Source of the DNA: Eledone cirrhosa
Lineage: Eukaryota
DNA length: 64,000 bases
Reading direction: 5' to 3'
NCBI GenBank assembly: GCA_964016885.1
Contig: OZ024743.1
Location: 230,764,001-230,828,000 of the forward strand
Position 1 is the first letter of the stretch. Every line of letters begins with the position of its first letter. Positions 8,581 through 63,090 of the stretch are shown here, in pieces. The notes beneath the pieces are model-generated. The model worked only from the letters and a program-made list of their open reading frames with translations. It was not told the DNA's origin and ran no database searches. The position numbers and the translations under genes are program-made.

Positions 8581-8583
<3 letters not shown>
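8047..8583 (-). mobile_element. (TA)n-inserted PLE-like tail with a degenerate HHR and a GC hairpin
   Basis: Minus strand CTGATGA-tatc..atac-GGAAC-CCGG-TC (~8110-8155); hairpin AGGGCGACCG/CGGTCGCCCT (~8213-8257); flanked by (TA)n. Confidence 0.45.
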
Positions 8584-8632
<49 letters not shown>

Positions 8633-8877
8633 TATGAAGAGAGAAGAAACATTTAGATATAATTAGTAATAAAATGTATCATACCTAAACTGCTCCTAAA
8701 TTCCTCGACTACGTAGTTACGTGGCATAAACACCGCCTCCGTGGTATTTTCTTCGTGGTTATAAGAGGCTTAGCTCTGTTTCTCGACCGTTATATCGCGT
8801 GACTATCTCCCCCTCCGCCTTTTGGGATTCTTTCTCACGTCGTGTAGACGCGTTCTTGAGACTAGTAAAATGAGGTA

Positions 8878-8965
8878 TCCTCTTGATAAGTTGGCAGACC
8901 TCGCAAGGACTCTATATCTTTGATATATTGTTTTTGTTTATGCCACGAAACTACGTAGTTGAGGA
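8878..8965 (+). ncRNA. Hammerhead ribozyme, U3-A8 core variant (family B)
   Basis: Stem I TCCTC/GAGGA; core TTGATAA; stem II GT-t-GGCA..TGCC-AC enclosing a long insert; GAAA; palindromic ACTACGTAGT stem III; GUU triplet. Confidence 0.75.
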
Positions 8966-9465
8966 ATTTAGGAGCAGTTTAGGTATGATACATTTTATTA
9001 CTAATTATATCTAAATGTTTCTTCTCTCTTCATAATGTATTTTTAACTCTGATACTGGTTCAGTCTGGTTCAAACTGAATTGGTCTGTCCCAGTCATTCA
9101 TTGAGCAACATCGGTGAAGTTGGCACCCTTAACTCACAGTTGGGTGCGGATGCATTCATGTATATATGTGTGTGTCCGCATGTATCTGTGTGTTTCTAAA
9201 TATATTAACTCCCTCTGGTCGAGCAATCTTTGAAGTGTGGGGACAACTGGAAAGCTTCCATTACTCATACTTCTCGCCTTCTTCACTACCTCTTCTACGG
9301 CCTCGATATGAATACCCCCTCCGCCTCCGTGGTATTTTCTTCGTGGTTATAAGAGGCTTAGCTCTGTTTCTCGACCGTTATATCGCGTGACTATCTCCCC
9401 CTCCGCCTTTTGGGATTCTTTCTCACGTCGTGTAGACGCGTTCTTGAGACTATTAAAATGAGGTA

Positions 9466-9553
9466 TCCTCTTGATAAGTTGGCAGACCTCGCAAGGACTC
9501 TATATCTTTGATATATTGTTTTTGTTTATGCCACGAAACTACGTAGTCGAGGA
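9466..9553 (+). ncRNA. Hammerhead ribozyme, U3-A8 core variant (family B)
   Basis: Same fold as 8878-8965, with a GUC triplet. Confidence 0.78.
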
Positions 9554-9784
9554 ATTTAGGAGCAGTTTAGGTATGATACATTTTATTACTAATTATATCT
9601 AAATGTTTCTTCTCTCTTCATAATGTATTTTTAACTCTGATACTGGTTCAGTCTGGTTCAAACTGAATTGGTCTGTCCCAGTCATTCATTGAGCAACATC
9701 GGTGAAGTTGGCACCCTTAACTCACAGTTGGGTGCGGATGCATTCATGTATATATGTGTGTGTCCGCATGTATCTGTGTGTTTC

Positions 9785-9829
<45 letters not shown>

Positions 9830-10089
9830 AAGTATATATATATATATATACTTTTGAATTGATCCGCATTCCATGGACCTATGATACTGCCGAATAGATT
9901 TACATATTTTAATTAACCCCTTTACTCAGCAAGTGCCACAGCAGCTGAAATAACGATGTCAACGGCAATATTAATAACGTTAATTAAAGGAACTGCTTTT
10001 CCTCTATTCTGCGCCAATGCATTAAACCTTCGTTTCCTGCATTACACTGGTTTCCTGCATCTGGCTTTAGCGTGGACGCAGTACAGTCG

Positions 10090-22643: not shown

Positions 22644-22770
22644 AAAATCCTTTTATACAGCTCCAACCGGGATTGACTGTAGCATATTCAATATTACATA
22701 TATGATTGGCACTTTCCAGCCCGATTAGTTGAGCACTCTACAGTTTTCAGGAATTTAACCAGCATACACC

Positions 22771-23403
22771 ATGGACCTTTATGATTTGGATTATTCAATC
22801 AAAAATATACCCACTCCTTCCAACACAACTTACACCAAAATCCTCATAGACAAAATCGAACATGTCGTTAAAAGAATGAGATGGAAGGCAATAGATTACG
22901 ACGGACTATTCAGGGCTGATACTAAAGATTGTTTTGACATCAAATCTCGTAAATATCCACCTAGAATTAAAGACATGGCCAGCTTCGAATTAGACCTCGT
23001 TAATCTAATTAATGATATCAAGTTTCGTAAGTACAATAATAACTTTCAAACCAAACTTTTTAACGATATTTCTGATTTTAGAAATTCTACAAACACTTTC
23101 GTTCTTTCTAATAAAACTAAAAACCTCTTTGAAGTTAATGGTACTTTGTATAACCAACTTTTAACTAATAGTATTACCAATAAATATCAATTAACTAATA
23201 ATAATACCTACAATACTATCAATAAAGAAGCTAAAGAACTAGCTAGTTCTTTACAAATAGATAACCGGATTGAAAGCTTAGCTAAGAGTAAAGCATATAT
23301 TACCTTTAAAGACCATAAATTGGACTTTACTAATCGACCTAGTTGTAGATTGATTAACCCGGCTAAATCCGAGGTTGGCCTTGTAAGTAAGAATATCTTA
23401 AGA
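22771..23403 (+). pseudogene. PLE ORF N-terminal region, truncated before the RT core
   Basis: The 230 aa ORF matches PLE N-termini up to SKNIL, then reads into a SINE head. Confidence 0.85.
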
Positions 23404-23460
23404 AACTATGCTGGAAAGCATGGCGTCCGACCCTCTACCGACACTGCCAATCCACCGCCC
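23404..23460 (-). mobile_element. 5' head (57 bp) of the tRNA-SINE embedded in the PLE
   Basis: aactatgctggaaagcatggcgtccgaccctctaccgacactgccaatccaccgcc is nearly identical to 50617-50672. Confidence 0.9.
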
Positions 23461-23746
23461 TAGACATTTTTAATAATGCCACCCCTTATTATAATAAAGC
23501 CCTTAAGAACAGCGGTTTTACAGAAAACATTTCTTATTCACCTACTCCCCCCCCCCCCGTAAAACTAACCACAATAACAGGAAAAGGAAGATTATTTGGT
23601 TCACACCCCCCTTCTCTCTAACTGTCAAAACTAATGTAGGAAGGAAATTCCTTGAACTATTAGACAAACATTTTCCTCCTAATCATAGATATTATAAGAT
23701 ATTTAATAGGAACGTAGTCAAGATCAGCTACTCTTGTTGCCCATCT

Positions 23747-24208
23747 ATGAAGTCCAAAATCACCAGCTCAAACCGGACGAGAATAAATCCAGGATGCAGT
23801 TGCAGGAAGCCGGACGAATGCCCATTGCAGGGTAGATGTAACACTAAATCTGTCGTTTATGAGGCTACGATAACACCAGTAATCAACAACCAGCCAGCCA
23901 GGAGTGAGCGATATGTCGGTATGACCCAGGACAGGTTTAAAACCAGATTTTACTCACATGTCGCTTCCTTTAAGCACTCCGATAAACGTACATCAACGGC
24001 CCTCGCAAGTAAGGTGTGGGAACTCAAGGATAGTAACATCCCGTACTCTATTGATTGGTCTATATTAGACCATTCGAGGGAGTACCAAAGGGGCACAAAG
24101 AATTGTTCTTTGTGTACCACAGAAAAGTATAGGATTTTGCTAAACTTGAGAGACACTTCCGCTTGCCTTAATTCAAAGACTGAGATCTCAGATGCTGTCC
24201 TCATCTGA
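23747..24208 (+). pseudogene. PLE GIY-YIG endonuclease domain
   Basis: CSCR..CPLQGRC..VVYEATI..YVGMTQDRFKTRFYSH..CSLCTTEK..LNSKTE. Confidence 0.9.
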
Positions 24209-27201: not shown

Positions 27202-27797
27202 CAATGCTTACGTTGACCTCTCAAAATTCGTTAGATTTTCTGAATGGATTTTACATCGAAGCTGGATACCAATCCGGTGTACACCTGAACTTCCACAAGG
27301 AAATATTTCGTATCCTTGACATTTTCTTTGCTTCTGGCATTTAAATATTCCACGACTCTCTGTACCACTTTTCCTCTACTATAGTCTTCTTACATCACTT
27401 TCTTTTCACCCCTCTATTTTTCACTCCCACCCTAGTACCTTCAATATGCCCAATCTCAAATCTTTTCTCCACCAGCTCCATTCTACACTCAAGCGCTTCC
27501 TCCAACCTCTCCCCTCCCCTATATGCATCCAATCCTTCCTGCATCTATCCAACCTCATCTTTACCAAAACACGATAAAACAGTCACATCACATTTTTAAG
27601 TCTCTGTCTCCACCAACATCTCATTCCCCGCGGGTTTAGCATCAAGTTTCACCCCACCTCTTACTCTGCTCCCACCACTGAGCCCATCCTTACCCGGTCC
27701 TCTCGCCAGCTCTGCGGGCAACCATTCGATCAACTCTCTCCCAAATCCGTTATCTCGACCGAGATCCCCCCGGGGCCTATTTCCATCTCTCCTCTAC

Positions 27798-30200
27798 TTG
27801 CCCCACTTCCACGCCCAATCCCTTATCCAATTTATCCTTTACCTCAATCGCCTCCTTTTCAATTTCCTCACTTCCGTAAAACAACACAAACTCGACTCTC
27901 TCCGCACCCCGCCTGCCGCCACCACTCATACTCATATCACCTCCAACCCTAACCCCTCTAACCCGTCACCTACCACCCCCTTTCCTCTCCCCACCATTGA
28001 ATCTGCCCACCGTTTGCCCAACTACTTTGACCCCTCCGCTTCCGACTCTTTCACTCCCTCACGTCCCTGCACTGTAGTTACCATACCCCAGGACCTACCA
28101 CTATCCGAAGCTGAGCGCTCCCTCCTAGCCCGTGGTTTGCGTTTTATACCAACCACATCTACCTGCGACGAGTTCCGCACACGTGCCGAGATGGAAGAGT
28201 TCTTCCGTCGATTAAAGCTGAAAGCTTTTTTTCACGACATGCCATCATCGACACAGACGGATGACTTCATTCGTCTCAGTCGCCGGCAATCACATTGGAC
28301 GCCGAGTTCTGACCAGTTCAGCACCCTCGACTCCTTTGTAGATACTTACCGGCGTACGGTGAATCGGTTCCGTTCCCACCAGCATTCTCCTCGCGCTAAC
28401 ATCACGCGGACTGAAATCTCCGCTCTTCGCAAACTTCAGCCTCGTGATCACAGTGTCATTAAACCCGTTGACAAAGGTGGCGCTGTGGTGGTTTGGAGTG
28501 CTGACCTCTATAGGGCTGAGGCTCTCTGCCAGCTTCACAGTGCCTTTATATACCGCCCTTTATCCTCCGACCTCACTCCTGGCTACCAACATCTCGTGAC
28601 CTCCACCATTCACGAGCTCTTCTCCTCCTCTCTCCTTCCCCCACAGCCACCAACCTTATTGTACGCACCCCCTCGCACACTCACCAACTACTTCACCCCA
28701 AAATACACAAACAAAATAATCCTGGCCCTCCTATCGTTTCTGCGTGCAAATACCCCACCGAGATAATTTCTGACTATTTAGACACCATCCTCGCCCCGTT
28801 AGTCTGCAATCTCCCCTCGAACATCCACGATACAAATCATGCCCTTAGACTCTTCAACTCGTTCTGCTTCCCTCTTGGTTCCTCCCACTTTCTCTTTACC
28901 CTGGACATCACCGCTCACTATACCCTCATCCTTCATGATGACGGCCTCCTCGCTCTCCAACATTTTTTAGATTTACGCCCTACCCCTTAACCCAGCACTA
29001 CCACTCGTCTCCGTCTGGCTGAGCTTGTTCTCACCCTCAATGGATTTTCTTTTTCGGGTGAATTTTATCAACGGGTCTCTGGGGTAGCGATGGGAACCAG
29101 AATGGGTACAAACTATGTAAACTTGTTTATTGGCTACGTCGAAGCCCATATCTTCTCCCAGTACGCTGGAACGACTCCTGAGCTATACGGTCGTTATATT
29201 GACGACTGTATCGGCACCACCTCTCTATCACGAGAACAGCTCGACTGTTTTTTTTCTTATGTTCAATCTTTCCATCCTGCTCTTAATTTAACCGCCTCCC
29301 ACTCCGATTCTTCTGTCGCTTTTCTAGATATCTCTCTATCTATTAACCACTCTCACTGCACCCTCTCTACTTCCAACTTCATTAAACTAACATACTCCCA
29401 ATCTTCTCTCGACTTCACCTCCTCCTCTCCAACAAACACAAATACTCCATACCCTATTCACAATTCCTCCGTCTTTGTCGACTCTGTAGCCAGGACGACG
29501 ATTTCGAAACCCATTCCCTTCGCATGGCTTCCTCCTTCATCCAGCATGGATATCCCCCAACCTGATACAAGCTGCTCTCACCCGCGCCCGTGAAACAGAC
29601 CGCACCACAGCCCTCTCACCTCACCCCTCCCTGCCAACACCCGTGTTCCTTTCCCTCTCACCTACCACCCCACTCTACGATTCCGGTGACATATCCTGCG
29701 TTCCTTCCATATCCTCTCTTCTGACCCCGTTATTTCTCGCTTTTTTCAAACCCACCCATTACTGCTTTTAAACGCGCCCAGAACCTCCACGACTTCCTGG
29801 TTCGCAGTTCCTTTTCATCCTCTCCCACGACTCCACCCGTCTCTCATCCTTTTTTCCCGTTCCCGCTGCAACACTTGTCCCTTTATTTCCACCCTCACCA
29901 CTCTTACAGGCCCTAACGGGTATTTCCATATCCACCATTCCTTGTCTATGCCCTCCGGTGTTCGCTTTGCGGGTCTTTATATATCGCACAAAAGAGGCGC
30001 CGTATGGCGGACTGTTTTGCCGAACATTTGAGGGACATACAACTCGATTTGGATACTCCTGGAGCCCTTCATTTCTGTTCTCCTGGTTATTCTTCCATAC
30101 ATGTTTCAGTCAAGGGTGTCATGGATCACAGACCTGGTGCACCAGGACTGAACAAAGTCTGATTCACTGCCTTGGGTCCTATTCCCTCTTGGACTCAACT
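27798..30200 (+). pseudogene. Frameshifted PLE reverse transcriptase/endonuclease ORF
   Basis: ORFs 27798-28766 and 29090-29593 carry the DKG motif and the RT motifs GVAMGTRMG and YIDD. Confidence 0.88.
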
Positions 30201-30459
30201 CACCTCCCCAATTTCTCTAATACCCCGTCCATTATCACACCACTAGATTCCTATCGCTTTCTCTTGATCATTACAATTAATACATGCCGACTATATATGC
30301 TCACTCCACTTTTCCCTTCACTGCTCTGTAGACACATATACACAACAACATATTAACATACTTTTGCTCATGGCTTCGTACTTACATGCACACACACACA
30401 CACACACACTCTTTTACTCACATATACACATACGTTTAGCTTCGTACCGACGTATAATA

Positions 30460-43133: not shown

Positions 43134-44052
43134 GGAAAAAATGAAACGAAATTTCATTTCTCACTCTTAGTACGGCTGTTACTTAAATATAAGTATGTAT
43201 ACGTACATACATATATGTATACAGACGTACAGTAGTATGTATATATATACATGCATGCACACATATATGTACGTATGGATTTACCGAACATTTATTATAA
43301 TGCTCGGTGTGTTTGTAAACAAACATCTCGAATTAAGCCGTACATTGTTTAGCAACCATCGTTGCCCTTTTGTTCAACACTGACAAAGGAACGATGTACT
43401 AGTTTCAAGCTTATTAGCTATCGTTAGCACCGTATACCTTCCCGCCAGATGATTGAACGTCTGAAAGTATATACTTTCCTTATGCATATTAACGGCTGAG
43501 CAGCCTAATTTGCATATCGAGTCAGTTAATCGGCCGGGCGCACCGAAAACGATAAACGGAGAAAATAAAACTTTTAGGTGTCTATGTGGTGGACTAACGA
43601 TTTTTTTAGGTTGTTAGTTATAGCGAGGGGCATGACTAAAGGATAGGCTAAGTTGGGTCGAATATTCTGTTTGCGAAGGAGCTCGCTCTGCGGTGGTGGC
43701 AGTTGATGACCAAGTCATCCATGTCATTGATGGGGGGGGGGGGGGGGGGGGGGGGGGGGCTTGAAAAACCTAAGTGATAGGCCTCGGTAAGACTGAGATC
43801 GCAACAGTTTCCTCTCCCATTAAACGCTTGAGATCTAGCTAAGATATCCCAAGTTAGTGAATGTTCAATATATCTAGCATATTATATGTTTAAAATCAAC
43901 AAACTTCTCGTTTAACGGTCTTTGTTGTTTTTCCTTCATCTATTCATCATTACAATTTTGATTTGACTGTTACATCAATAAATGCAATTAAACTGTAATT
44001 TAGCGACTTCCTAATCATACCTACTTATATGACAGTAAATATGTATACATAC

Positions 44053-47544: not shown

Positions 47545-50410
47545 CGCACGATAGCAATTAACAGCGCTGCGATCGGATGTGGCTTTTTAGCCTAGCCAAT
47601 GATCTAAAATGTCTTGCACAGATTTGGCAACCAAAACATTCACTGGGAATAGCCGGCCTCTAAACCGTCACGCAGAGAGATTTCCAAAATCTCGACATCA
47701 CTGATGTGGTCCCTCCAGTGAACGCCATGGATCCGTCTGAGATACATCTGATGGAAACGCTCCAATTTGTTAAGGTGGTGGCGATATGTGACCCAGGTCT
47801 CGCAGGCATAGAGAAGAGAAGAGCGCACACATGCCTTGTACATCTTTACCTTTGTCTTCCTGCATATGTCTCGCCGACCCCAGAGTTGCCTTTCCAGCAG
47901 CTTTCCGAAAGCATCACTTGCTTTTCTAATCCTGAGTGGGATTTCATTATCAAGGTTGCTGTATCGATTGACAGTGCTTCCCAAGAATACAAACTGATCA
48001 ACCACTCCAAGTCGTTTACCATACACATAAATATTTGGTTCCCTGTACTGCCTACCGAGGGCAGGTTGGTACATGACGACGGTTTTCATGAGACTGACAG
48101 TCAATCCTAGAGCAGTGCAAGCATCACAAAATGCATTCAAAATGTGCTGCATATCACTCTCTGTAGGCTACAACATCGCAATCATCTGCATACAAGAGGT
48201 CTCTTATGATTGATGTAAATATTTTTGTTTTTGCAGCAAAGCGCCTGATGTTAAATATGCTGCCAGAGGTTCGATATCGGATGTAAACACCATGCTCGCA
48301 ATTCCTGAATGCAATATAGAAAACCATTGCAATGTTTATGGCAAACAGAGTCGGTGCTGGAATATCCACCTGTTTCACTCCATATTTTACTGAGATAGGC
48401 TCCGACATATTACCTCCGACATTAACCCAAGCCTTCATGTCGTCAAGGAAAGACCTAACCAAAGCAAGGAACTTATCAGGGCAACCAAGTTTCTGGAGCA
48501 CCTTCCATATTGCATTTCTGTTAACAGTATCGAAAGCTTTTGTCAGATCGACAAAAACCTGATATAGATCCAAATATTTTTCCATGCACTTCTCCTGGAG
48601 CTGTCTAGCTGAGAAGATCATATCAGTAGTGCCGCATCCAGCACGAAAACTAGATTGAATTTCAGGAAGAACACAATCTGCAATGCGTGTCAGCAGACGG
48701 TCCAGAAGCACCCTACATAAAACCTTCCCTACGACAGAAAGCAATGATATACCTCTGTAGTTGTCACAATCATTCCTGTTACCCTTTCCATTGTACAAGA
48801 CCACCATTACTGCATCTCTCCAGAAACAAAGAGTGAAGATGTTGCAGAAGTCTCTCACCACGATATTGTAGGAGCTCTGCATGTATGCCATCCATACCAG
48901 GAGACCTTCCACTGTTCAGCTCCGAGATAGCTACTGCAACCTCCACATGCGTCGGAGTTTCTGCGAGAGCCACTTTCACAGGACTTTCTGGAATAAGATT
49001 GAGGACATCTTCATTGACGACAGACGGCTGATTCAAAAGTTCATAAAAGTGCTCTCGCCACCTTCCTAGAATTCCTTGTGAGTCACGAAGAAGTTCTTTG
49101 CCATCCTTGCTGCGAACCGGTGTCACCAGAAAAGAAGACGGTCCATAAACCCCACTGAAGAGTCTGTACAACAGCTTTGTGTTATTGTAATCTGACGCAG
49201 TTTGTATCTCATCAGCTTCCTCACTCCACCACTGATTCTTCATCTCAGAAAGTCTCCACCTAACACAATATTTCACATCCTTGAGTTCCCTTTGCAACAT
49301 ATTCTTCTGTCGTTTTAGCGTCAAGTAGCGTGACAGAGCACGCCTCTTATCAGCCAACAAGTCTTCTATATGGTCATCATTTTCCTTAAACCAGTCTTGA
49401 TGTTTTCTCTGCACCAATCCCAGAACACGCCTGCCTACATCATAAACCGACTTTTTAATGGCAGGCCAATCCTCACTAGGATTTGCAACCTGCATATCTT
49501 CTCGCAATGTCCTCTTCACATTTTTATCCCTAAGACGAGCAGCATTCAATCTTCTGTGCAGGGTAACACCAGGAGCCCTGATTTTACTTTTAGTAATTAG
49601 TTTCCCTTTTGTGCGCACCAGGCGGGGTCCGTCCAGCACTCAACTCCACGAAGAGCACGAACACACTGCACATCCCGTCTGTCACGCATCCTGACAAGGA
49701 CTTAGTCTAAAATATGCCATTCCTTAGATGCAGGATGCATCCATGTAGACTTAAATTTGTTCTTTTGTTGGAACATGGTGTTGGTAACACACAGATCCAG
49801 CTCTTCACACATCTGCAACATGAGCATACCATTGTTGTTAACTTCCCCACTCATGCCTTCCGATTACATTCCATGTGTTCAAATCGCTACCCACTCTAGC
49901 ATTAAAGTCACGAAGCACGATGACTTTGTCTGCCTAAGGGATATTTCTTAAAACACCTTTCAAGGCATGGTAAAAGGACACTTTTTCTTCATCGACGTAA
50001 TTCATAGTTGGAGCATGCACACTCACCAGGGCCGCATATCTTCCTTTGTCCAGCGGAATTATCATGGACATAAGACGCTCACTAATCCCTACTGGGAATT
50101 CTTCTAATTTATCCACAAGAACAGTCTTAACAGCAAATGCTACCCCAACCTCTCTTCTTTTCCAGAAAAATGTACATTCTCCTCAAAATCCGTAAGATGA
50201 CCATCTCCAGCTAAACTCGTCTCAGATAAAGCTACAATGTCAAGATCGCAACGTCGAAGCTCCTTTGCAACAAGAGCGTTCCTTTGTTCAGGGCGTTCCA
50301 AGGAACGTCCGTATGTCCCAGCAGCCAAGACTAAATGTCTTGTTTGGCTCTATTACAGTGGCACGATGACGAGCGGGATCAGGCTGTTATAACCTGGGGA
50401 CCCTGCCCCT
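47545..50410 (-). pseudogene. RTE-BovB-like LINE, near full length but frameshifted (APE + RT + C2H2 end)
   Basis: DIVALSET; NYRGISLLSVVGK; QSSFRAG..TTDMIFSARQLQEKC; FVDLTKAFDTV; GVKQ; LLYADD; LLYACETW; CQICARHFRSLARLKSH. Confidence 0.93.
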
Positions 50411-55903: not shown

Positions 55904-56098
55904 GAAAAAGTATGACCCCTACGGCAGAGATCAAGCCGTTTCGGCAGCTATTTGTGGACTAGAGATAGCCGTCGAAACGGCTTGAGCTCTGCCGTCGGGG
56001 TCATACTTTTTCCTATTTCCCACTCTACTACCCTAAGTATTGAGTACTCTGGTGCGTTATGGTCCATCTGGTTCCTTACCACAATTCCTTTGTTATAC
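55903..56098. mobile_element. Mini inverted insertion in (TA)n, related to 17637-17744
   Basis: gaaaaagtatgacccctacggcagag / ctctgccgtcggggtcatactttttc; the right arm extends further. Confidence 0.75.
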
Positions 56099-56351: not shown

Positions 56352-56391
<40 letters not shown>

Positions 56392-56392
<1 letters not shown>

Positions 56393-58180
56393 AGAGTATT
56401 GAAGTCTGCTTGAAGCATTGTGGAATAATAAGGTAAATTTCTTTAAGGCGTTTGGAAGCCTTGACAATGCAGATGGGTAAATCTCCGGGTAACAGGATCC
56501 GGTGGTAGAGAGAGAGAGATGTAAGTGGGTGTACGTTGAGATGGTAATCTCTACTCCAAGGTCACGGGAATCACTCTCGCGCAGATAGAAGAGCACATCA
56601 ACGCCGCCTGGACCAACATCTGCGACCGGCGGAAGCACCCGAAGAAGCTGAGATACAACCTCCTCACGAGGAACAGCAGACTACCCGCCTTCTACCACCT
56701 CGTGAAAACACACAAACAGGGACCCGACCTGAAGATCAGGCCCATTTTATCGAGCGTGGAAGGACCACTCTACAAAATGTCATGGTTCCTAGCCAGAATA
56801 CTCAAACCTATCTTAGACTCCTTGCCGGACACGTTAACAGCTCCAAGGAGGTGTTGAAGCGCCTGCGTCAAATGGATCCCGACACCAGAAAGAATAACAG
56901 ATATGACTTCAGCCTTGATGTAGTCGCTCCCTACACTTCGTTCCCGGCACTCCCGGCCGTCAATATACTGATGGAACGCGACCAAATCCACCGACCTACA
57001 CTGCTTCGAGCTCACCACCACTGACATCCATCAACTACTATCCATCGTCGTCGACAACACCTATTTCGGATTCCTTGACCAGACATGCCAACAAACCTCG
57101 GGACTGCCCATGGAATCAAGCCTGTCGGGTGTGTTAGCGATCACTTACATGGACAACCTCAAGCGCAAGGCACTCAACGCCTGCCACCCCAACGCCGTCG
57201 CCTTTTTCTCAAGGTACGTGGACAATATCCTCATCCTCACATCTTCCCAAGACATGGCGAACAGAATCTAAGAGACGTTCAACAACACGGACGAGAACAT
57301 TGACTTCAGTGTTGAACACCCCAACGAAGACGAGTCACTTGCCCTCCTCGACTTCCGAATCAACATCACGGAACAGGGAGGGATCCACTGCAACTTCTAC
57401 CGAAAGGCAGCCTGCAGCGACATGTTCGTCCACTACAAGTCCGCTCTCACTAACAGTGCCAACAGAGGATACATCACAAACGAGATCGCGCGAATCAAAA
57501 ACAGATGCAGCGATCCCGAGAGTGGTGTCACTCATACCAAGCGATTCCTCGAGGTGCTGGAGACGAACGGGTACCCTACCTCGCTCACGGAGAGAGTAGG
57601 ACACACCAGACACACGAGACAGAGAGGCACCCAAGGCAAGTGTTTCCTTAAAATGTCACACTTGGGCGGGAATACCACCAACGCTATCTGCAAGGCTATA
57701 CGGAGGGAGGGCCTTGTCATCCACCTGGCCCAAACGGGCCCCTCCCTGCGAAGATGCCTCTCCAGGAAACCCGGGAAATCAACTGACGCGTGCTCCCTCA
57801 GAGACTGCCCAATGCGCCATGCGAACTGTTGCCTACGCACATACGTCGTGTATAAGATAGAATGTAACAAGTGCAACCAATACTATATAGGTGGCACAAT
57901 CCGGCCGTTGCACATCCGGATCAGGGAACACACTAAAACCAGGGCCTCGTCTTTCCGGAAACACATAGCCAAATGCGGAAACAAAGACGGAAGGCCCATT
58001 GTCACAATTCTAGCGACAGAAATAAACGTCGGCACGTTACGTACCAAGGAAACACTTTGGATCAAACGCCTAGGGCCACAATTAAACAACCGATCCAAGA
58101 GAAGCGAAATGAGGTGGTTGGTTTAAGTTAACAAACGATGCAGCAACACACGCACACACAAACACAAACGAGACATCAAC

Positions 58181-58219
<39 letters not shown>

Positions 58220-58794
58220 CAGTAGCATTCCACCATTCGAACATACTACACTGCCAATACAGAGGAACAAGGCAACAACACACGCACACACACACACACA
58301 CTCAAGTGACACAACAACACACGCACACACACACACACACAGTAACATTCAACACACAGGCAGAGAATGGACTAACAGCTAGCGCCACCCCTTTCCCACA
58401 ATTGAAAGAACTACTTCGGCCGCTGACCTCTGCCTGACCGACCACATTACACAGCGCACGCGCGCTCTGCTGAATACCTCAGATATTCAAAACAACGAAC
58501 AGTGGGACACGTTTCGCACCTTTCCGACAGACAACCTTTCTCCCACTCCGGAAAATACTCCCAGTTGAAGGATTTGAAACCGAAATATATAGGGACAATT
58601 AAATCTCTCGCAAGGTTGTTATTTTTATTTTTATCCTTTACGCTCTATCCTTCATTCCTCTACACGTCTTATACACGCCATTCATCTCAACGTACACCCA
58701 CTTACATCTCTCTCTCTACCACCGGATCCTGTTACCCGGAGATTTACCCATCGGCATTGTCGAGGCTTCCAAACGACTTAAAGAAATTTACCAT
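56392..58794 (+). mobile_element. 5'-truncated Penelope/Poseidon-like element with an inverted 5' pLTR, within (TA)n
   Basis: RT remnants KIRPILSS, QQTSGLPM..LSGVLA, RYVD. ORF 57422-58126 carries the thumb and GIY-YIG (VVYKIECNKCNQYYIGGTIRPLHIRIREH). 56430-56545 is inverted relative to 58680-58794. Degenerate HHR at 58558-58596. Confidence 0.9.
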
Positions 58795-58922: not shown

Positions 58923-59036
58923 CAATATATACCAGTTTTATAAATAAATATTGACATACCCTTCCAAAATGCAACCGTTACTTGTGGAAGACATCAGGGA
59001 TTGTCGAGGCTTCCAAACGACTTAAAGAAATTTCCC

Positions 59037-59093
<57 letters not shown>

Positions 59094-59096
<3 letters not shown>

Positions 59097-59265
59097 TAAA
59101 TTTCTTTAAGTCGTTTGGGTAAATCTCCGGGTAACAGGATCCGGTGGTAGAGAGAGATGTAACTGGGTGTACGTTGAGATGCGTGGCGTGTATAAGACGT
59201 GTAGAGGAATGAAGGATAGAGCGTAAAGGATAACTAAAAGCATGGACAAGAAAAATAAAATGAAC
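59094..59265 (-). mobile_element. Extra pLTR 3' fragment of the 56392-58794 PLE
   Basis: Reverse complement of ~58620-58794 with an internal deletion. Confidence 0.8.
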
Positions 59266-61203
59266 CAAGTCAGTCAGTCACATCTCGTCAGCCTACCGCT
59301 AGAGGTACGTTATTTCAGTGCTTTAGGATCGATTTCAACTGGCCTTAGTACTCAAGGGATAGTAACAAATGAACAAAGGACACGAATGGAAATTGTGTCA
59401 TATTTATATTAATTCGTAAATTTTTAACCACGAGAACTATTTTTTCATATATGTATATATAATCGTGTGTGTGTGTGTGTATGTGTGTGTGTGTGTGTGT
59501 GTGTATGTGTGTGTGTGTGTGTGTTTCCGCGCGCGTGCGCGCGTGTGTGTTTCTATATATTTATAAATACTCTATAAATGTATTGTATGTCACATTTTTA
59601 ATAATTGCAAGTAGATTATGGGTGTATCTGAGAGAATTACGCAATCATTAAAGACAGATGTCTGTCTAAAATATCAAAACAGCGAGAACAATCTGGAGAT
59701 AGATATTTTAGTACTGCAATACTATTAAGTATTGATCACTCTTCATCATTCGTATCCTGCCATCCCGTACAGTACATCCATCATTCGTATCATGCAATCC
59801 GGTACAGCATATTCAATAACGTTCTGGTCGGGTACCAGCAAACCTCTTAGGGTACCTTGGTGATGAGAGTTGCAAATGGCCTGGAGTCATTGATCACATA
59901 AAAGTGGAAAGACTATTGGAGACATAGTTTCCTTGGTCTGATTTGGCGAGAGGCAGCTTTCATTTGTTTTGTTTTTTTCTGTTTACTTGTAATGCAGTTA
60001 ACTCAATTAATGTTGGTGGTTTGGCTGTTACTCTCGCTTTATGAAATTCTGTTGATAATAATATAGGACATGATAGGGGTGTTATCCCTACAGTAAAACC
60101 ATCGAAGAAGCTTCATGCATATGTATTATAACGATACAATTGCAACGGATGTCGGTTAACCATGTAAGGGTTGAGATTGTGATTCATGAACTGGTGTCAT
60201 CAAAAGTATTGCCGAAGGAGCGTGAACTTATTTACAAAATTCAAGTACGTTGTAAAACATGCACTAAAGGTTATCCAATTTTTTCTGAGTTAAACAGTTT
60301 TCATGTTCTATTGCTACACTCGCTGCATGGTAATGTGAAAAGGAAGCTATTCTTTGGGGCTCTGTTGAAAACATGATTTAAGCACAAGATGCAGTGACAC
60401 TTTTGGGAATCACTGGTTTGTGTGAAAACAGTTAAGAGCTGGAGTTGTATTATTTATGAAAGGCAGGATAAAGTTTAAATCAACTATGAAATGGTTAAAC
60501 TTAGAACGATGTTAAAAGAAATTACTATTATTATATTCTTAGAAGAAATAAGGTTCTCATACTGTTCAACAATCAGCTCTATCTTCCATTTCTAATTTAA
60601 GAAGTTATGTACTTGACGGAGAGACAAATTAATGTCATTTAGTGCAGTATGACATGTTTTCGTATAAGTGTTGGAAACTGAGTCAGAAAGAAGACGATGG
60701 TATGTTTTCTTGTCGATATCATATCGATTTTTCGTTTCATCAAAGTTTACCAAGAGATTAAATTACTTCATGATGCTAAGATTATTTCTGGTTTTCTTTG
60801 AATATATTAGTTCTATTTTTAAATTTAATATTTTTATTATTATCTATATTAAGAAAAGAACACATCTTCGAATGTTTGCGATAAGGGTTCAAATAGTTGT
60901 TAGGAAAATGAATGTGTTTTTTACCCAGGTATTATTTATTTAGTGAATTTATTTATTTATTTATGTAGCTATTTATTTTCCTGTCATATGTAGCATGGTT
61001 TCATAGCATTGAAATGCATTTATTTCAGAATTAATGAGGTTATAATTGCATCTTAACAAGTCCATTCAATGTTGTACACACACATTCATATGTATTTATA
61101 AATTCATACATATATACGTGCAAACACACACACAGACACACACACACACAGAGACCAAATACATATCTGCATATATGCATATATATATATATATATATAT
61201 ATA

Positions 61204-61255
<52 letters not shown>

Positions 61256-61261
<6 letters not shown>

Positions 61262-62497
61262 GAAACACACAGATACATGCGGACACACACATATATACAT
61301 GAATGCATCCGCACCCAACTGTGAGTTAAGGGTGCCAACTTCACCGATGTTGCTCAATGAATGACTGGGACAGACCAATTCAGTTTGAACTAGACTGAAC
61401 CAGTATCAGAGTTAAAAATACATTATGAAGAGAGAAGAAACATTTAGATGTAATTAGTAATAAAATGTATCATACCTAAACTGTTCCTAAATTCCTCGAC
61501 TACGTAGTTTCGTGGCATAAACAAAAACAATATATCAAAGATATAGAGTCCTTGCGAGGTCTGCCGACTTATCAAGAGGATACCTCATTTTACTAGTCTC
61601 AAGAACGCGTCTACACGACGTGAGAAAGAATCCCAAAAGGCGGAGGGGGAGATAGTCACGCGATATAACGGTCGAGAAACAGAGCTAAGCCTCTTATAAC
61701 CACGAAGAAAATACCACGGAGGCAGAGGGGGTATTCATATCGAGGCCGTAGAAGAGGTAGTGAAGAAGGCGAGAAGTATGAGTAATGGAAGCTTTCCAGT
61801 TGTCCCCACACTTCAAAGATTGCTCGACCAGAGGGAGTTATTAATATATTTAGAAACACACAGATACATGCGGACACACACATATATACATGAATGCATC
61901 CGCACCCAACTGTGAGTTAAGGGTGCCAACTTCACCGATGTTGCTCAATGAATGACTGGGACAGACCAATTCAGTTTGAACTAGACTGAACCAGTATCAG
62001 AGTTAAAAATACATTATGAAGAGAGAAGAAACATTTAGATATAATTAGTAATAAAATGTATCATACCTAAACTGTTCCTAAATTACTCGACTACGTAGTT
62101 TCGTGGCATAAACAAAAACAATATATCAAAGATATAGAGTCCTTGCGAGGTCTGCCGACTTATCAAGAGGATACCTCATTTTACTAGTCTCAAGAACGCG
62201 TCTACACGACGTGAGAAAGAATCCCAAAAGGCGGAGGGGGAGATAGTCACGCGATATAACGGTCGAGAAACAGAGCTAAGCCTCTTATAACCACGAAGAA
62301 AATACCACGGAGGCGGAGGGGTATTCATATCGAGGTATCCTCTTGATAAGTCGGCAGACCTCGCAAGGACTCTATATCTTTGATATATTGTTTTTGTTTA
62401 TGCCACGAAACTACGTAGTCGAGGAATTTAGGAACAGTTTAGGTATGATACATTTTATTACTAATTATATCTAAATGTTTCTTCTCTCTTCATAATG

Positions 62498-62500
<3 letters not shown>
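61256..62500 (-). mobile_element. Family B retrozyme-like element, second locus (591 bp period, ~1.8 units plus an inverted arm)
   Basis: HHRs at 61493-61580 (-), 62084-62171 (-) and 62338-62425 (+); (TA)n at both ends. Confidence 0.9.
62338..62425 (+). ncRNA. Hammerhead ribozyme, U3-A8 variant (family B)
   Basis: TCCTC TTGATAA GTcGGCA..TGCCAC GAAACTACGTAGTC GAGGA. Confidence 0.78.
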
Positions 62501-62520
<20 letters not shown>

Positions 62521-62528
<8 letters not shown>

Positions 62529-63090
62529 CGTAAAATAAAAAAATTATAGTAATTAATTCATTTACTTAAATTTCACTCCAACTAATTAGTTTCTGAAAGG
62601 GGATATTCATAGTCTCCAAATGGAGACCATAGAGAATCCTTTCTTCATCAGAGAGTCATTCTCGGCTAAGATTCCTGACGATTCGTGGACACTGGGATCA
62701 AATACAAAAATAATTTAGTGGACGGAAAAAAGCTAGCGTGGACTAAATCCCTAACCATTGAAAAGTTCACTGTCTTCCTGGTCAGTGGCAAATTCAAAAG
62801 AATCAATCACGTGACATCGAGGTTAATCAGTGAGGTGTGGAATGTTAAAAAGACAGTAGCCAAGTTTAATACTATGAAACATAGTAGTAATTTAGGCAAA
62901 TTTTTGCTCAACAAAATAATTTGGAGATAATTATAAAGAATTACTATATCTACCAACATATTTATACAGATGTATACTTACGCTAGCAAATATATAGGGT
63001 TTGTCTTAGTAACTTTGTGGTTCATTACAAAGAGATGCAGAACAATTATATAAAAGACGTAAAATAAGAAAATTATAGTAATTAACTCAT
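62521..63090 (-). mobile_element. Diverged family C unit (529 bp period, ~1.1 copies) between (TA)n tracts
   Basis: ataaaagacgtaaaataa at 62521 and 63050; colinear with 52867-53772. Confidence 0.85.
62575..62656 (-). ncRNA. Hammerhead ribozyme (diverged family C)
   Basis: ACTCT/GGAGT; CTGATGA; GAAAGG/CCTTTC plus TATGGTCTCCA/TGGAGACTATG; GAAACTAATTAGTT. Confidence 0.85.

Follow-up and report, generated by a model that had tools for sequence, protein, structure and literature searches.

A non-coding 591-bp repeat of Eledone cirrhosa that was probably copied into (TA)n microsatellites by PLE machinery from two fixed RNA start sites

To our knowledge, the assembly of the tandem, inverted and tailed insertions left by PLEs is still largely unexplained. 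In the literature on these elements (PMC8557442), PLE insertions are described as partial tandems next to which lies an inverted, 5'-truncated copy, with a tail of 30–40 bp that is often found at a single end. The same source gives (TA)n as the favoured target of several PLE clades, Naiad and Hydra among them, tentatively ties the target bias to a linker Zn-finger that is also carried by Neptune and Nematis, and reports that some non-autonomous PLE derivatives form multicopy insertions in head-to-tail arrangement. In an in vitro study, a PLE protein in purified form cut the two DNA strands, extended each of them and initiated reverse transcription at two internal sites of the RNA, the spacing of which corresponds to the tail; each strand made similar use of the two start sites (PMC11167929). 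Animal non-LTR retrozymes are defined by the presence of a type I hammerhead ribozyme in every unit (10.64898/2026.07.22.740005).

The DNA analysed here (the window) is a stretch of 64,000 nucleotides from Eledone cirrhosa (assembly GCA_964016885.1, contig OZ024743.1, positions 230,764,001 to 230,828,000 of the forward strand), which is a microsatellite-rich section of a genome of 3.0 Gb whose chromosomes are very large. Coordinates without a prefix are given relative to the first letter of the window. It contains two insertions of a 591-bp repeat, designated family B, which are referred to as locus A and locus B (Table 1). Unit positions are numbered q1–591, corresponding to window positions 61259–61849 on the plus strand, and positions in the RNA are given as r = 592 − q.

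Table 1. Positions of family B and PLE-A features in the window
Feature	Position	Strand	Description
Short arm, locus A	8627–8732	-	q160–265, 106 bp; site 160 3' end, at 8627, adjoins (TA)n 8583–8629
Long arm, locus A	8733–9790	+	Approximately 1.8 units with a period of 588; site 1 3' end, at 9790, adjoins (TA)n 9788–9850
PLE-A, inverted arm	56391–56545	-	Carries the 42-nt tail (56391–56432) adjoining (TA)n
PLE-A, main arm	56546–58792	+	3' end without the tail, at 58792, adjoining (TA)n
Target microsatellite, low side of locus B	61171–61258		(TA)n interrupted by (TC)n
Long arm, locus B	61259–62335	-	Unit 1, 61259–61849 (q1–591); unit 2, 61850–62335 (q1–487, truncated); inferred RNA sense, minus strand; 3' end at 61259 (site 1, ...GUGUUUCUAA)
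Tail between the two start sites	61259–61417	-	159 nt, q1–159 / r433–591; predicted to be strongly structured
Inverted 5'-truncated arm, locus B	62332–62500	+	q328 down to q160, 169 bp; inferred RNA sense, plus strand; 3' end at 62500 (site 160, ...CAUAAUGUAU)
Head-to-head joint of the locus B arms	62332–62335		4-bp GAGG microhomology, overlap of the two alignments
Microsatellite, high side of locus B	62498–62523		(TA)13

The first-pass annotation of the window had described locus B as a second, near-identical insertion on the opposite strand, 52 kb away from the first. This was borne out, as locus A (8627–9790) lies at a distance of 51.5 kb, has the opposite orientation and is 98.7% identical; its period of 588 rather than 591 bp results from a 3-bp difference at the unit joint. 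The two loci carry the same two 3' junctions, as had been claimed, with the long arm terminating in ...TGTTTCTAA and the short arm in ...CTTCATAATGTAT (also given as ...CATAATGTAT), in each case directly on (AT)n. The inner joints differ between the loci, and the short arms, for which lengths of about 100 and 170 bp had been annotated, were measured at 106 and 169 bp. The GAGG microhomology noted at the joint of locus B is a real alignment overlap. A segmental duplication, named in the annotation as the outcome that would speak against its reading, was not detected: the 2 kb of flanking sequence on each side of locus A showed no similarity to those of locus B (blastn, E ≤ 1e-3), and the two loci are therefore independent insertions.

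The genome-wide sample comprised 41 arrays, namely the best 40 of at least 356 first-look candidates and locus A. Arrays were chosen as best-scoring full-unit matches, with short insertions and divergent relatives of family B falling outside the sample, and array sizes are therefore biased upward. The 40 scored candidates (the best 40 of at least 356) were 99–100% identical to the window copy, and the recent activity that the first-pass annotation had deduced from high identity is thus upheld. All of the 67 outer 3' ends in these arrays were located at q1 or within q155–176 (q1, 35 ends; q160, 27; q176, two; q155, q164 and q166, one each), with 32 of them near the second site; the random distribution of 3' ends that would have contradicted the annotation was not observed. 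Every array was set in (TA)n, and at least four TA repeats were present within 14 nt of 65 of the 67 ends; as a background, 4.8% of window positions are followed by (TA)4 within 15 nt. The 67 inner ends, by contrast, were scattered from q25 to q591. They formed clusters at the unit boundary (q591, 3 of 67) and at q53–64 (8 of 67), two enrichments that were spotted post hoc and whose Poisson values are merely indicative. Fixed outer and variably truncated inner ends indicate copies made from an RNA with its 3' end at q1 or q160, the sense of which is accordingly the reverse complement of the q numbering; the earlier interpretation of the outer ends as specific 3' ends of reverse-transcribed copies, set in a (TA)n target, agrees with this pattern.

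By the tally, 26 of the 41 arrays were two-armed, that is, they carried an inverted, 5'-truncated copy in head-to-head arrangement, and 15 were one-armed. An inverted arm of 18 nt that the tally overlooked makes L018 the 27th two-armed array, and it obeys the same pairing rule as the others. All strand switches in the 26 arrays joined 5' end to 5' end, with an overlap of the arms of −4 to 12 bp. Site 1 was paired with site 160 in every one of these arrays (26/26), an outcome with a probability of 1.5e-8 if each arm chose its site independently with p = 0.5. The one-armed arrays ended at q1 in nine cases and at q160 in six. Either arm could be the longer one (15 versus 11 arrays), and both were able to exceed one unit. 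All 41 arrays contained more than one unit, and the longest arm comprised 6.9 units, in a sample that is biased towards full units. Arms longer than one unit imply a template that was multimeric, circular or re-used. The circular or multimeric template put forward in the first-pass annotation is consequently retained, with re-use of the template as a further option.

The arrays were more homogeneous internally than in comparison with each other, with a divergence of 0.229% within arrays versus 0.588% between arrays. Within arrays, the values were 0.232% for units of the same arm and 0.227% for units of opposite arms. Non-consensus variants were present in all units of an array in 40 cases, in part of the units in five and in a single unit in 82, and of the 22 multi-unit variants at positions that both arms cover, 20 were found in both. 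Since private variants are common to units and arms, each array can be traced to one unit sequence, with the singletons acquired since. These data suggest that each array, including its opposite arms, was born from effectively one unit, and the homogeneity favours an effectively single-unit template. In array L046, at positions 1465–1500 (G000:C2:144970864-144970899), a complete unit is preceded by a 12-nt copy of the 3' terminus (GTGTGTTTCTAA), by ATAT and by a second such copy; these short copies look like the result of repeated abortive re-initiation at the 3' site. Together with the inner ends at q591, they give a hint, noticed post hoc, of a unit-length template that was re-entered at its 3' site.

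Further copies were encountered outside the scored arrays. One older member of family B (L075:1-348; G000:C3:274944465-274944812), 5'-truncated onto (TA)n, has 89–92% identity with the unit in the window; the family is therefore more ancient than the recent burst of copies with 99–100% identity. In the DNA sequencing runs, contigs broke at the (TA)n tracts, and the insertion was bridged by none of them; the (TA)n loose ends of run X1 contigs included, among those listed, positions 61844 and 62009, which correspond to q1 and q160. Contigs from runs coded as three other organisms (X4, X5 and X8) matched 61274–62132 and contained the unit with 2–3 differences per approximately 370–620 letters, which may reflect close relatives, host DNA in other samples or horizontal transfer. 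The four RNA-labelled runs yielded a sole match, a contig of 31 letters with 3 differences, which speaks neither for expression nor against it.

The unit does not encode a protein: stop-free frames in a dimer reach 86 codons at most. Rfam searches of positions 61000–62800 (E ≤ 10) revealed no hammerhead or other ribozyme family on either strand, and the CUGANGA hammerhead core was absent from both strands of the circularised unit. Sub-threshold matches of microRNA type on TA/CA repeats (for example mir-297, 41.6 bits versus a gathering value of 90) were rejected as low-complexity artefacts. In single-sequence structure predictions, made without covariation, the RNA of the inferred sense (minus strand) folded with z = −5.4 (0 of 100 shuffles as good), compared with z = −1.0 for the antisense (plus-strand) RNA (15 of 100 shuffles as good), and a 182-nt stretch spanning the tail reached z = −6.0, with 0 of 200 shuffles folding as well. 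The predicted structure includes hairpins at r523–586, which ends 5 nt before site 1, and at r344–431, so that both start sites are predicted to be located just 3' of long hairpins.

The choice of these sites had been attributed in the first-pass annotation to UA patches of the RNA that anneal to the cut (TA)n. Besides the unit joint, the unit contains alternating UA stretches with lengths of 5–7 nt at r183, r305, r315 and r553, and they were used by none of the 67 ends, whereas the much-used site 160 terminates in only UAU. Annealing to the target therefore does not account for the choice of sites, and this part of the annotation is not supported.

A PLE that was designated PLE-A is present 2.5 kb from locus B (56391–58792; Table 1). 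This copy is set in (TA)n and 5'-truncated, and it encodes a frameshifted RT with a C-terminal GIY-YIG domain. Adjacent to it, two further 3'-end fragments of this family (58996–59240) point towards each other from either side of (TA)n 59040–59094. PLE-A accounts for 16,989 first-look candidates in the genome. Its intact ORFs of 881–923 aa combine RVT_1 with a C-terminal GIY-YIG domain; in the 923-aa ORF, RVT_1 scored 43 bits and GIY-YIG 21 bits, slightly below the cut-off of 22.6. The family has two 3' ends that are 42 nt apart and both lie on (TA)n, with the extra 42 nt overlapping the start of the ORF. All seven two-armed insertions with both ends visible carried the tail on exactly one arm, and an eighth, whose arm is cut by the locus edge, was left unscored. 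No hammerhead was detected by Rfam in the window copy or the full PLE-A unit. In addition, GIY-YIG searches returned at least 10,595 first-look candidates, many of which outscore PLE-A on the Pfam model (L084–L103 were looked at), some of them in open frames of 844–1096 aa, and this suggests that several further PLE families exist in the genome.

Several other features of the window were recorded. A reverse transcriptase of the LINE type (RVT_1, YADD motif), distinct from PLEs, occupies several frameshifted ORF pieces at 47640–50182 on the minus strand. A palindromic element of about 108 bp with the arms GAAAAAGTATGACCCC...GGGGTCATACTTTTTC follows immediately after a (TA)n tract (55904–56011) and looks like a small foldback or MITE-type insertion. 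Open frames of 194–388 codons without a Pfam match (E ≤ 0.01) are located at 22759–24208 and 27600–30356 on the plus strand, and an unbroken run of 28 G is found at 43732–43759.

Sequences of a possible helper were searched for by blastn and Smith-Waterman alignment of the unit and by scans for its terminal motifs (≤ 2 mismatches) in the window, 30 PLE-A loci, 3 full-length PLE-A loci and 20 other GIY-YIG loci. The best local alignment of family B with the 3.27-kb PLE-A unit scored 13, against a shuffle mean of 12.8, and thus gave no similarity. The 30 PLE-A loci yielded only matches of the CA/TA type, apart from the old family B copy in L075, which is unrelated to PLE-A, and no similarity was detected in the 20 other GIY-YIG loci, a small sample of more than 10,000 candidates. 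A 3'-end sequence in common with an autonomous family was likewise not found among PLE-A and the 20 GIY-YIG loci sampled. The obvious candidate for the helper is PLE-A, an abundant family, yet it has no sequence in common with family B.

Family B resembles canonical EN+ PLEs in its partial tandems, its inverted 5'-truncated copy, its extension at one end and its two start sites, and it targets (TA)n as do the Neptune, Nematis, Naiad and Hydra clades. PLE-A, with its RT and GIY-YIG domains, follows the same one-tail rule on (TA)n. The differences concern the tail, which at 159 nt exceeds both the published 30–40 and the 42 nt of PLE-A, and the arms, which never start on the same site (26/26), whereas the purified PLE protein of the published assay used its two sites alike on both strands, so that the published biochemistry offers no explanation for the strict one-of-each rule. 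The putatively non-autonomous Chlamys elements of Chlamydomonas (MRC1 included; PMC8557442) are also non-coding, have a pseudo-LTR or head-to-tail multicopy organisation, target microsatellites, show very low divergence and live alongside autonomous PLEs. Their 3' ends are common to those of their partners according to the same text, whereas family B has none in common with the PLEs sampled. The non-LTR retrozymes (10.64898/2026.07.22.740005) likewise consist of non-coding tandem units, are proposed to be non-autonomous passengers of PLEs and are possibly copied from circular RNA; they differ from family B by their hammerhead ribozyme, and family B is therefore not a retrozyme. A full-text literature search returned no paper describing an element of this kind, and one may exist.

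With good confidence, we consider family B to be a non-coding 591-bp repeat that was likely copied into (TA)n by a PLE reverse transcriptase-endonuclease, with reverse transcription predicted to start at two fixed RNA sites that are 159 nt apart. It is likely a non-autonomous element mobilised by PLE machinery and is best filed as an unusual PLE-style non-autonomous passenger, one that lacks a ribozyme, carries a long tail and shows no similarity to a helper. Its behaviour is that of a known system, yet it does not share all of the features by which the members of that system are defined. Rather than representing a new kind of element, it is an uncommon version of an insertion style that is already known. 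Briefly, a PLE endonuclease would cut both strands of the (TA)n target, after which the freed 3'-OH groups would prime cDNA synthesis on the RNA of family B, using site 1 (r591) for one strand and site 160 (r432) for the other. The two cDNAs would grow toward each other and be joined head to head by microhomology, and the extension of a single strand would leave a one-armed, 5'-truncated array. Arms of more than one unit would be obtained from a template in which the unit joint was already present or from the re-use of one unit.

A more specific form of this mechanism is offered tentatively, as a possibility that we hold to be doubtful. Here, family B would be a ribozyme-less, retrozyme-like parasite of PLEs whose arrays are made anew at each insertion by the reiterative copying of a single unit-length RNA, either circular or re-used end to end, in the manner of a telomerase relative, and a dimeric PLE particle would obligatorily start its two cDNAs at different hairpin-flanked sites. 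If true, this would explain both the one-of-each rule in 26 of 26 arrays and the homogeneity across arms, and it would also account for the excess of inner ends at the unit boundary and for the 12-nt stutter copies in L046.

Other origins were weighed against the same data. A SINE-like passenger of a (TA)n-specific LINE, its inverted arms made by twin priming as in L1, appears improbable. LINEs are present, as exemplified by the RVT_1 ORF with its YADD motif on the minus strand (47640–50182), and fixed 3' ends, 5' truncation and inversions are known for LINEs too. L1 twin priming also resembles the events at family B in that two cDNAs from two DNA ends are combined into a head-to-head inversion with a microhomology joint. 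Its second site, however, is reached by chance annealing and varies between insertions, whereas that of family B is fixed (q155–176 in 32 of 32 ends), is always other than the first and was used while better UA runs remained idle (0/67). A LINE origin is further disfavoured by the strict pairing of sites, by the multi-unit arms on both sides and by the GIY-YIG PLE of the same genome, which behaves identically; an unsystematic look revealed no LINE whose 3' end matches. A very improbable origin, in our assessment, is a DNA-level element that integrates at TA, be it a rolling-circle element of the Helitron type or a satellite moving via circular DNA. Integration between A and T and the ability to form tandem arrays are features of Helitrons, and family B arrays are indeed tandem and set in TA repeats. 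Helitron termini read 5'-TC and CTRR-3', which are not matched by a family B array that, read in one orientation, starts with TTAGAAAC and ends with ...AATGTAT. Moreover, both outer ends have the same unit polarity, with the 3' ends facing outward, the 67 inner ends are truncated at scattered positions, and a strongly structured RNA is predicted from one strand only, a combination that an RNA intermediate fits better.

The arrays themselves could in principle have grown after insertion, if single units had integrated and were later expanded by unequal crossing-over or gene conversion. We judge this to be quite improbable. Three of the five partial variants are confined to neighbouring units (L049 at two sites, L027) and resemble local duplication, and a satellite-birth model is discussed for retrozymes in the report cited above (10.64898/2026.07.22.740005). 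Against such a history, all 41 sampled arrays, in a biased sample, exceed one unit, and arrays with a divergence of only about 0.1–0.2% already contain up to 6.9 units in one arm. The divergence of inverted versus direct arms (0.227%) next to that of direct units (0.232%) is, moreover, unattainable by unequal crossing-over of direct repeats. A snap-back (hairpin) origin of the inverted arm was rejected, as the inner ends of the two arms were located at different unit positions in 25 of the 26 arrays, with only L033 being symmetric (64/64). Matches of at least 100 bp between the flanks of other arrays were observed in 33 pairs; among the 20 pairs listed, they joined unlike sides and unlike structures (e.g. 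L005/L020), so that they were read as other dispersed repeats.

Copying of family B RNA by PLE machinery thus remains the preferred reading. The family provides hundreds of near-identical, very young and short insertions, each of which allows an exact reading of its two ends and its inner joint. It yields a clean in vivo rule, with one start site per arm and never the same one twice, it has a 159-nt tail that is much longer than described, and it furnishes evidence for one template sequence behind both arms and all units. It is also an example of a PLE-style passenger without a hammerhead ribozyme or detectable similarity to a helper. With a 591-nt RNA, both the geometry of priming and the origin of the tandem copies become directly testable.
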